A stretch of 64,000 nucleotides of DNA from Patescibacteria group bacterium (GTDB taxonomy: Bacteria; Patescibacteriota; Microgenomatia; CAYGWK01), in the NCBI GenBank assembly GCA_049322615.1, contig JBMORX010000010.1:89416-153415 (forward strand), in the 5' to 3' direction. The notes under the pieces were generated by a model. It did not search any database and had not been told where the DNA came from. It worked only from the letters and a program-made list of their open reading frames with translations. Within the stretch, counting starts at the first letter, position 1; the number at the start of each line of letters is the position of its first letter. The translations under genes and the position numbers were made by a program. This document shows positions 46,117 to 46,918 of this stretch, in pieces.

Positions 46117-46918
46117 TTTTTATTACGAGAAGAAATTTTGGCACGTAAAGCCCGCTAATAAGCGGGCCACGTGCCTACCCCGTGAGTCGCCGAAGGCGAC
46201 TTTTACGGGGTGGAAGAAAGGATTTGAGTATGTGGTCGGGGTTGACGAGGTTGGGCGGGGAGCCTGGGCAGGACCAATCGTCACTGCGGCTTGCGCCTTC
46301 GTTCCTCAAATTAAAAATTTAAAATTTAAAATTGAAAATTTAGGAATAAATGATTCGAAGTTATTAAAGCCTAAACAGAGAGAAAAATTGGCAAAAGAGA
46401 TTAAAAAAAATGCCCTAGCCTGGGATGTAACCGAAGTTGGAGTAGGAGTAATTAACCGAATTGGCATTGGCAGGGCGACTCAAAAAGCGATGAGGAAGAG
46501 TATTGGGGATGTAATTAAGAAATTAAGAAATGAAGAAATTAAGCATAAAAAAAATTCCCTTAATATCTTAATATCTCAATATCCTAATATCTTCATTCTC
46601 GTCGATTTCTACTCAATTCCTTATCTTCGCGGTTTGGGTCGGAAGAACCAGTTAGGGATAAAAAATGGTGATCAAAAATCAATTTCTATTGCTTCAGCCT
46701 CGATTTTGGCAAAAGTTCATCGGGATAAGATTATGCGTTCTTTAAGTAAAAAATACCCTCAATATGGCTGGGGTAAAAATAAAGGCTACGGGACAAAGTT
46801 GCAGCAGAAAGCAATACTTCGATACGGTTTGACAAGGTATCATCGGAAAGAGTTTGTTAAAACATTTCTTGAAAACCGGCGGACAGTTTCGAGAAAAGGC
46901 TTTGGTTTAAGTTCTTGA
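46091..46918 (+). CDS. rnhB: Ribonuclease HII with an in-frame 33-nt repeat insertion.
   Basis: VVGVDEVGRGAWAGPIVTAACAF...DSKLL (RNase HII catalytic DEDD region). The insert at 46559-46591 encodes LNILISQYPNI. Confidence 0.85.
   Translation: MPLSQNLPNFYYEKKFWHVKPANKRATCLPRESPKATFTGWKKGFEYVVGVDEVGRGAWAGPIVTAACAFVPQIKNLKFKIENLGINDSKLLKPKQREKLAKEIKKNALAWDVTEVGVGVINRIGIGRATQKAMRKSIGDVIKKLRNEEIKHKKNSLNILISQYPNIFILVDFYSIPYLRGLGRKNQLGIKNGDQKSISIASASILAKVHRDKIMRSLSKKYPQYGWGKNKGYGTKLQQKAILRYGLTRYHRKEFVKTFLENRRTVSRKGFGLSS
46559..46591. repeat. 33-nt element CTTAATATCTTAATATCTCAATATCCTAATATC inserted in frame into rnhB.
   Basis: An identical 33-mer (as reverse complement) lies in fmt at 63601-63633. 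Both are read in the same frame and give the peptide LNILISQYPNI. Confidence 0.85.

Follow-up and report, generated by a model that had tools for sequence, protein, structure and literature searches.

A stop-free octamer array recurring in frame in unrelated housekeeping genes of Microgenomates-type Patescibacteria

In-frame repeat DNA in essential genes has so far been known as an oddity of Rickettsia and some cyanobacteria. The former harbor the Rickettsia palindromic elements (RPEs) reportedly described by Ogata et al. in 2000, which are palindromic consensus elements of ~100-150 bp, found in Rickettsia only and always as insertions. For Nostoc, Elhai et al. (2008, Genome Res 18:1484) are said to have reported small dispersed repeats (SDR) of 21-27 nt that lack a transposase, lie inside conserved sequences including genes and are tied to tandem heptamer arrays, with their mobility inferred from orthologous sites. 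Known heptamer repeats are TAACTGA (PMC4679880) and GGGAATC and GGGGAYT (PMC4692102); in these systems one or a few units dominate each genome, and their copies in open reading frames (ORFs) mostly lie at protein ends or in hypothetical proteins. Repetitive extragenic palindromic sequences (REP), in turn, are individually palindromic and extragenic, with one sequence family per REP-associated tyrosine transposase (RAYT) (PMC3116915). Here we analyze a 33-nt tandem octamer array that is read in frame in rnhB (RNase HII) and fmt (methionyl-tRNA formyltransferase) on a 64,000-nt stretch of a Patescibacteria contig (JBMORX010000010.1), hereafter the window, whose nearest named relatives by homology searches are Candidatus Shapirobacteria and Microgenomates.

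The octamer array in rnhB, fmt and other genes

The 33-nt sequence CTTAATATCTTAATATCTCAATATCCTAATATC occurs at 46559-46591 (+) in rnhB and, as its exact reverse complement, at 63601-63633 (-) in fmt, with no mismatch over 33/33 nt, confirming what a first-pass annotation of this DNA had noticed; no match to it arose in 100 dinucleotide-preserving shuffles. Both copies begin at the first codon position and are read as LNILISQYPNI. The common frame and peptide, to which the annotation also drew attention, are real enough, but they need no special cause because only one of the six frames of the 33-mer is open and the other five hold stops. The sequence consists of 4.1 copies of CTTAATAT with two substitutions, T19C, which changes into CAA the TAA that a perfect array puts in frame, and T26C, which turns CTT into CCT; a perfect (CTTAATAT)n array has stops in 6/6 frames. 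The 33-mer is the single stop-free version of a dispersed tandem array of the octamer AATATCYY. It is not an assembly artefact, since independent assemblies from other studies have the element at the same codons.

The rnhB gene (46091-46918, +) encodes a 275-aa RNase HII (PF01351) and contains three arrays. The 33-mer is preceded at 46511-46545 (+) by a left arm, a (AATTAAGA)n array encoding VIKKLRNEEIKH, which is an imperfect inverted repeat of the 33-mer (best match 16/20), lengthens a native helix of the enzyme and has its DNA in common with rnhB of the orthologue L043. A short form, MRKTISDLARKGYPPDFVLVD, is widespread in relatives between the conserved helix and the strand with the catalytic aspartate, where the window protein has MRKSIGDVIKKLRNEEIKHKKNSLNILISQYPNIFILVD. 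With respect to this minimal form, the net insertion amounts to ~57 nt or ~19 aa (LRNEEIKHKKNSLNILISQ; approximately 46523-46579, +), the added DNA comprising the (AATTAAGA)n left arm, a spacer and most of the 33-mer, while the native YPPD aligns with the YPNI end of the latter. The alignment with solved RNase HII structures breaks at this site, with ~25 extra residues in the region, and an AlphaFold model places residues 152-164 (pLDDT<50) in a loop between helix 126-153 and strand 167-172. The rnhB element is a true insertion, which the model places in a low-confidence loop. A further in-frame array, (AAATTTA)x5 at 46308-46342 (+), is unrelated to the 33-mer and encodes NLKFKIENLG, a 7-aa insertion relative to the solved structures; its in-frame TAA is removed by a T>G change (TAA>GAA), and 31 nt of it are identical to the FemAB insert of a Levybacteria femAB gene (L078).

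Two other features of this protein family concern the same enzyme. Residues 19-43 of RNase HII (46091-46220) form an extra N-terminal segment, HVKPANKRATCLPRESPKATFTG, common to the window protein, P0125 and P0130, missing in most relatives and modeled with low confidence; it is a lineage-patchy insertion and not obviously array-derived. At the insertion site of the window protein, the relatives P0126, P0138, P0144, P0145, P0151, P0169 and P0206 carry MRKTLRQAQGKL.GGKTF, in which RQAQGKL resembles a translated GC-rich repeat element of another kind; judging by these sequences, the site seems to accept several repeat classes.

The situation in fmt (62905-63840, -; 311 aa, PF00551/PF02911), which hosts two arrays, is different. 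Here the 33-mer continues into one degenerate unit, TCCCAATT, to give 42 nt of array-like sequence (63601-63642, -) encoding SQFLNILISQYPNI. Fmt residues 1-180 map to Pfam positions 1-180, the residue count from LTPEKLD to DLGVLAAYG is the same in Fmt orthologues as in the window protein, and the Escherichia coli enzyme has the same length in this region. In the structure model, the element makes up the C-terminal turns of helix 67-76 and the loop before strand 82-86 (DLGVL) with a pLDDT of ~95, and the hydrophobic pattern of the orthologues is kept in the segment (EFISNIKHLTSNID versus QFLNILISQYPNID). The fmt array thus fills native structure and is not an insertion. The earlier expectation that the 11 residues would prove to be an insertion in a surface loop therefore holds in part: in rnhB alignment and model agree with an insertion in a loop, although the added segment is larger than 33 nt, whereas in fmt there is no change in length and the residues lie in a confidently modeled helix end and loop. 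The second in-frame array of this gene, (AGAAGAC)x5 on the coding strand (63042-63078, -; ..TEDRRQKTVRR..), sits in an indel-rich region of the C-terminal domain.

A third gene of the window, encoding a ComEC-type metallo-beta-lactamase domain protein (22741-23622, +), contains near the C-terminus of its product an inverted array of the same family, (AAGATATT)n at 23524-23559 (+), encoding ..LKRLRNLDIKILRT... The partial inverted copy already recognized in this gene, AGATATTAAGATATTAAG, which encodes ..LDIKILRT, was found inside that array. The copy aligns without gaps to solved ComEC structures (PDB 9ic4_A), hence with no insertion at this position.

Beyond the window, a scan of JGI metagenome contigs for the exact core AATATCTTAATWTCTCAATATCC returned 28 loci. 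Twelve instances lie in a long ORF, all in one common frame, and include orthologues of the window genes; further in-frame hosts, from related Microgenomates, are FemAB-family transferases (L047, L053, L055, L060, L068), a GT1 glycosyltransferase (L054) and ComF-type phosphoribosyltransferases (L056, L058). The FemAB, GT1 and ComF copies have in common with rnhB a 36-nt module made up of the 33-mer and the preceding codon (TCC in rnhB; 46556-46591, +), TCN CYT AAT ATC TTA ATA TCT CAA TAT CCT AAT ATC, that is, S[L/P]NILISQYPNI. At least five enzyme families with no relation to each other carry this module in frame, and in every host a hydrophobic strand follows directly (FILVD, DLGVL, LLVDDV, EYFLIVSRL, RPSFHPLF). 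The left boundary of the in-frame copies, TCN-CYT, is part of the array, and the right boundary varies (TTC, GAC, CGA, GGA, TTG). An inverted left arm, DTKILSEKDIKKK, accompanies some FemAB copies (L047, L055, L060), and the remaining core loci are non-coding, usually as the right arm of hairpins of inverted octamer arrays, as in L046.

The core had 0 matches in viral contigs, and a phmmer search with the 32-aa rnhB module against 1.84 billion representatives likewise gave 0 matches, this query being too short for significance. A contig scan for (CTTAATAT)2-CTYAATATC returned 40 loci, almost all of them perfect (CTTAATAT)3 arrays scattered over many other phyla. Because such perfect arrays occur across many phyla, the octamer unit is an easily arising simple repeat. 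Within the window (64 kb, both strands counted), CTTAATAT together with its phase variants is found 11-14 times, essentially only inside five arrays.

Conservation, turnover and abundance of the arrays

The element is maintained at the DNA level in orthologues. It matches the window array at 32/33 nt in fmt of L041 and at 29/33 nt in fmt of L042, whose products are 73% and 60% identical in amino acids to the window protein, and at 30/33 and 29/33 nt in rnhB of L043 and L044 (71% and 63% identity, respectively). Where both proteins have the same degenerate amino acid, the codon agrees inside the element in 10/10, 7/9, 9/9 and 8/9 cases in the four orthologue pairs, versus a proportion of 0.40-0.60 elsewhere in the gene (binomial P = 0.0005-0.025 per pair). 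Flanking codons show third-position differences as close as 9 nt on the upstream side of the array and, on the downstream side, from the second codon on, and the conserved tract is therefore the array itself, not a longer recombined segment; the 9 nt next to the array, TCCCAATTT, are common to the window fmt and L041. Long-tract homologous recombination as the means of allele transfer was ruled out for fmt on the basis of synonymous differences close to the array.

The same protein positions are occupied by other arrays in related genomes. In fmt of L074, a Shapirobacteria relative, (AATTTCA)x4.4 encodes NFKFQISNFKF in exactly the same 11 codons, and the rnhB site holds (CAATATAG)n in L073 and (CAATATAA)n in L075. 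In a crude neighbor-joining (NJ) tree, the four element-bearing Fmt sequences fall in three separate places. FemAB proteins of Candidatus Levybacteria, a set gathered by protein homology and thus free of the bias of the exact-core scan, revealed the clearest case of turnover: between IQLEPN and HPLF they have 23 to 78 residues, with at least 12 kinds of repeat-derived peptide. NILISQYPNI is present in 17/112 of these sequences and falls in at least eight scattered places of an NJ tree for which the remainder of the protein was used; among relatives of the query, the element is present in one at 90% identity, whereas one at 79% carries a different array. From these sequences, the FemAB inserts are probably in-frame insertions that add residues.

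This FemAB site (L047/L053/L068/L076/L077/L078, P0241-P0360) is a hypervariable hot spot in an enzyme of the peptidoglycan bridge, and its content changes between proteins that are 75-90% identical. Peptides encountered there are SMVNGKWSMVN, ISNLKFQISNLG, SQLSTLN, TSEVAEWTPRRW, MLKLVQHD, SGQARMT, HNSKFIIHNS and NILISQYPNI.

The octamer array belongs to a large population. After merging of Tandem Repeats Finder rows, the 64 kb contain 48 arrays with 7-9-nt periods that span 30 nt or more, versus 0-1 in 20 second-order Markov simulations, with >20 distinct units of period 7, 8 or 9, e.g., AAATTTA, CTTAATAT, GAAGTGG, AATAAGCA and TCAGAGAA. Their lengths peak at 30-40 nt for 7-, 8- and 9-nt units alike, with few arrays at 21-30 nt, i.e., the distribution is bimodal. 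According to crude gene calls, ~25/48 arrays lie in gene interiors and 23 are non-coding or at gene edges, equivalent to densities of ~0.46 per kb of coding and ~2.5 per kb of non-coding DNA, a ~5x difference. An inverted partner (>=17/20) was found for 6/48 window arrays only. Loci of related Patescibacteria have 0.3-1.0 arrays per kb, alike in density and array length, and from the sequences compared ~35-nt arrays with 7-9-nt units appear to characterize Microgenomates-type Patescibacteria (Shapirobacteria-like, Levybacteria).

Some arrays of the 33-mer family are placed at start codons. A non-coding array, CTTAATTTCTTAATATCTTAGTCTCTTAATATCTT.., occupies 22699-22740 (+) between a ~190-nt repeat, termed R, and the ATG of the ComEC-type gene at 22741; a near-identical one at 32770-32811 (+) fills the space between another R repeat and the ATG of mreB (32812-33816). 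The annotation had described these as the tails of R elements, and the related arrays are indeed present at both locations. Further R repeats or parts of them complete the set ~20987-21075, 22304-22500, 22528-22698, 32620-32769, 35126-35300 and 40017-40100, all upstream of + strand genes and each followed by a different tandem array. They have a conserved 5' part, TGGCTCGGRGACGAA..GCTTGAGTTTAG, with possible long-range pairing to AAACTCAAGTTGTGTTCC, and a 3' end ..GCGCAAAARTTNTCNCCTCGCC. The region 20900-22800 had no Rfam match at E<=1, and Rfam returned tRNAs only for the whole window at the gathering threshold.

A composite element of ~100-150 nt is present at 26211-26358 and, in opposite orientation, at 51776-51884 (91 nt, 92% complementary); it consists of inverted octamer/nonamer arrays, TCAGAGAA / TTTCTGAG, one copy being intergenic and the other beside tRNA-Trp. 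The inverted non-coding arrays at 26211-26358 fold into a hairpin of -59 kcal/mol. A ~28-nt motif, AAATAAGCARAGCTTGTTGCTWCGC, recurs at 10540-10567, 16156-16183, 30315-30342, 40965-40992, 52082-52133 and 61740-61793, at the 5' ends of several ORFs or slightly inside them, beside heptamer/octamer arrays; it could be a shared leader, an N-terminal coding motif or another small dispersed repeat. The ORF at 1-6873 (-), which runs off the window start and exceeds 2,290 aa, has internal repeats of ~300 nt, with copies 79-96% identical, as well as several arrays of 7-8-nt units in frame.

The window also contains two genes for Y1 (IS200/RAYT-like, PF01797-type) transposases, at 10595-11281 (-) and 42468-43175 (-). 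The first is associated with identical hairpins GACAGGGTCCGTCCCTGTC at 10578-10596 and 11301-11319, with a third copy inside the gene (10790-10808), and the second is flanked by TAACCTTAGAGGTTA at 42414-42428 and 43191-43205. Genes and hairpins together make a putative REP/RAYT-like arrangement in a genome of the Candidate Phyla Radiation (CPR). At 47912-47987 (-), ARAGORN called a tRNA with a four-base anticodon 'ctta' and an enlarged loop (Rfam tRNA score 54.7 bits), which could be frameshift-suppressor-like, a tRNA-Lys/Leu with an insertion, or a miscall.

How the array may have reached unrelated genes

We judge, at slightly better than even confidence, that the recurrence of this array reflects short-patch copying between arrays followed by selection, and not transposition. 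Short patches would spread among loci through ectopic gene conversion or template switching, either from one array to another or at AT-rich microhomologies, with tracts that match the array (~35-45 nt). Purifying selection would then retain those copies placed in the single open frame, at positions where an amphipathic helix end, a YPN turn and the start of a strand fit. Ongoing exchange among copies, or homogenization within the array, would hold the DNA nearly identical, and we propose that rnhB and fmt match at 33/33 nt because of this continued process. The LNILISQYPNI peptide itself is probably without a function of its own.

A number of points weigh against this proposal. No donor-recipient conversion event was caught, and at ~73% identity even the nearest relatives of the window genes are too distant for a recent gain, loss or replacement at rnhB or fmt to be seen. 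The metagenome scan took the exact core, which makes the uniformity of its matches partly a matter of design; copies of the array family in the source genome were countable in the 64-kb window only; and the NJ trees are crude. RecA-dependent conversion needs prior homology, which leaves the first same-length replacement of 33-42 nt of native sequence unexplained. Finally, the narrow length mode of ~35 nt, the same for all unit sizes, is a hint of a dedicated, ruler-like process, and conversion would not predict it.

A bolder reading, to which we give a low but not negligible probability, is that Microgenomates-type Patescibacteria possess a unit-independent process with a length ruler that writes or overwrites ~35-nt patches of 7-9-nt-periodic DNA genome-wide, essential genes included. 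If true, helices and loops of conserved enzymes would time and again give way to a limited set of stop-free array alleles, for which neither transposition nor ordinary slippage would suffice, and the process would be a mutational or recombinational mechanism not described before and would open a new way for protein segments to turn over.

A mobile palindromic element is, in our judgment, an unlikely alternative to short-patch copying. Such an element, of the RPE, REPIN (REP doublet) or miniature inverted-repeat transposable element (MITE) kind, would be transposed by an enzyme encoded elsewhere, e.g., a Y1 transposase, and the fmt and ComEC-type copies would be half-elements that a deletion left behind. 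The inverted left arm and right arm in rnhB and in FemAB of L047, L055 and L060 agree with this idea, as do the significant hairpin of L047 (z = -3.6) and the strong hairpins of the non-coding relatives, L046 (z = -4.8) and the window locus 26211-26358 (z = -6.3), the Y1_Tnp genes, with two more flanking def-fmt in L074 besides the two in the window, and the well-documented in-frame insertion of RPEs (PMC10969869). Against it, the flanks of the 12 in-frame copies have no target-site duplications or terminal inverted repeats, the fmt and ComEC-type genes gained no length, and few of the window arrays have an inverted partner. Moreover, the rnhB hairpin (left arm and 33-mer, ~81 nt) folds no better than shuffles (z = -1.3; 18/200 shuffles fold as well) and the fmt array shows no hairpin pairing on folding. 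The hairpins beside the Y1 genes are unrelated to the arrays, and unit diversity makes one sequence-specific transposase for all of them improbable. Transposition is thus the less likely course because target-site duplications are missing, units are diverse and the Y1 genes have their own unrelated hairpins. The narrower version of a RAYT-mobilized hairpin was weakened by these same hairpins and by the lack of an inverted partner for most arrays.

Independent local origin, in which slippage from an AT-rich seed is followed by convergence through selection against stops and for a helix-turn peptide, strikes us as a little less probable still. The perfect (CTTAATAT)3 arrays of unrelated phyla favor it, as does FemAB, whose minimal form holds a heptamer seed of two units and whose expanded form is longer by exactly 21 nt, i.e., three units. 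Furthermore, ~128 stop-free variants exist for the frame if only the pyrimidine spacers vary, which renders identity of one pair unlikely but not astronomically so. Nonetheless, the 33/33 identity includes both 'imperfections' of the array, and all octamer-type FemAB inserts of the protein-homology set present the variant order CTT, CTC, CCT and no other allowed variants. Gradual growth is barred in a gene, where slippage by a single unit is a frameshift; fmt orthologues have no octamer seed; and the bimodal lengths, with their mode at ~35 nt, suggest that arrays are born full length.

We hold a selected function at the DNA or RNA level to be improbable. The array would serve as a protein-binding platform for a translational regulator or nucleoid protein, or as a DNA-uptake signal. 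Its synonymous sites are conserved, as such a role would predict, and arrays of its family lie directly before the start codons of mreB and of the ComEC-type gene; the TAACTGA heptamer repeats of Beggiatoaceae are also placed at start codons and have been proposed as regulator sites (PMC4679880). This is countered by the lack of octamer enrichment beyond the five arrays (11-14 occurrences in 128 kb, both strands counted), by the dozens of unrelated units with the same array format and by the quite different arrays at the same protein sites in sister lineages. A DNA uptake sequence in particular was ruled out by k-mer counts, as a motif of ~1 per kb genome-wide would be needed. Mutagenic homing of the diversity-generating retroelement (DGR) type was also set aside, given that the copies are identical, not adenine-mutagenized, and the targets are housekeeping enzymes.

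Lastly, it is barely credible that there is nothing special to explain, i.e., that these are native residues whose DNA identity stems from codon bias in an AT-rich genome: the Fmt segment does align with a native helix and loop and keeps the orthologue hydrophobic pattern, but chance yielded 0 matches, the octamer periodicity is clear, the same DNA appears in five unrelated protein families and codon choice is identical across orthologues whose other codons differ.

Significance and comparison with known systems

The arrays described here bring in-frame repeats at high density to the CPR, whose genomes are otherwise small and streamlined. The same 33-42 nt serve as a disordered loop in one enzyme and as a well-packed helix end in another, and sister lineages fill a given protein site with different arrays, in fmt without a change in length, while the array DNA is held constant as neighboring codons drift. 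They thus offer a natural system for how much arbitrary sequence a fold tolerates, and suggest concerted evolution, or else a copying process not yet known, in uncultivated bacteria. On the practical side, arrays can break assemblies, distort alignments, trees and domain boundaries of CPR proteins, and produce spurious 'shared motifs' between unrelated proteins. Full-text literature searches, of incomplete coverage, found no report of such arrays for Patescibacteria/CPR.

The Nostoc SDR are reportedly unique-sequence or hairpin elements nested in arrays and belong to another phylum, whereas here it is the arrays themselves that are dispersed. The likeness to RPEs lies in a dispersed repeat placed in frame in unrelated housekeeping genes, encoding a peptide tolerated by the fold and lacking a linked transposase (PMC10969869), and in rnhB and in FemAB of L047 a pair of inverted arms is present as well. 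To that extent the first-pass annotation, which took the 33-mer for an instance of the RPE phenomenon, was right about the dispersed, in-frame character of the repeat; it is, nevertheless, a tandem octamer array and not a palindromic element. Unlike RPEs, the arrays are 33-42-nt tandem octamers, often with a single arm, belong to Patescibacteria and constitute one of many families, and the fmt and ComEC-type copies overwrite native sequence at unchanged length.

With REP/REPIN-RAYT systems the arrays share short repeats, of which some form inverted hairpin doublets, abundance between genes and hairpin-flanked Y1 genes in the window (PMC3116915). They depart from REP in being tandem, half intragenic, of many families and unrelated to the hairpins that flank the Y1 genes. 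A further likeness is to the heptamer arrays of cyanobacteria (short tandemly repeated repetitive sequences, STRR), Beggiatoaceae, Bacteroidetes and Xanthomonas, i.e., many dispersed few-copy arrays of the 7-nt class (PMC4679880, PMC4692102), enriched between genes, located upstream of start codons, sometimes inverted and occasionally in ORFs, where stops limit their orientation. In contrast to these systems, dozens of 7-, 8- and 9-nt units coexist here with a common length of ~35 nt, about half of the arrays are intragenic, essential enzymes included, and a single stop-free allele of the array is met again in unrelated proteins and genomes.

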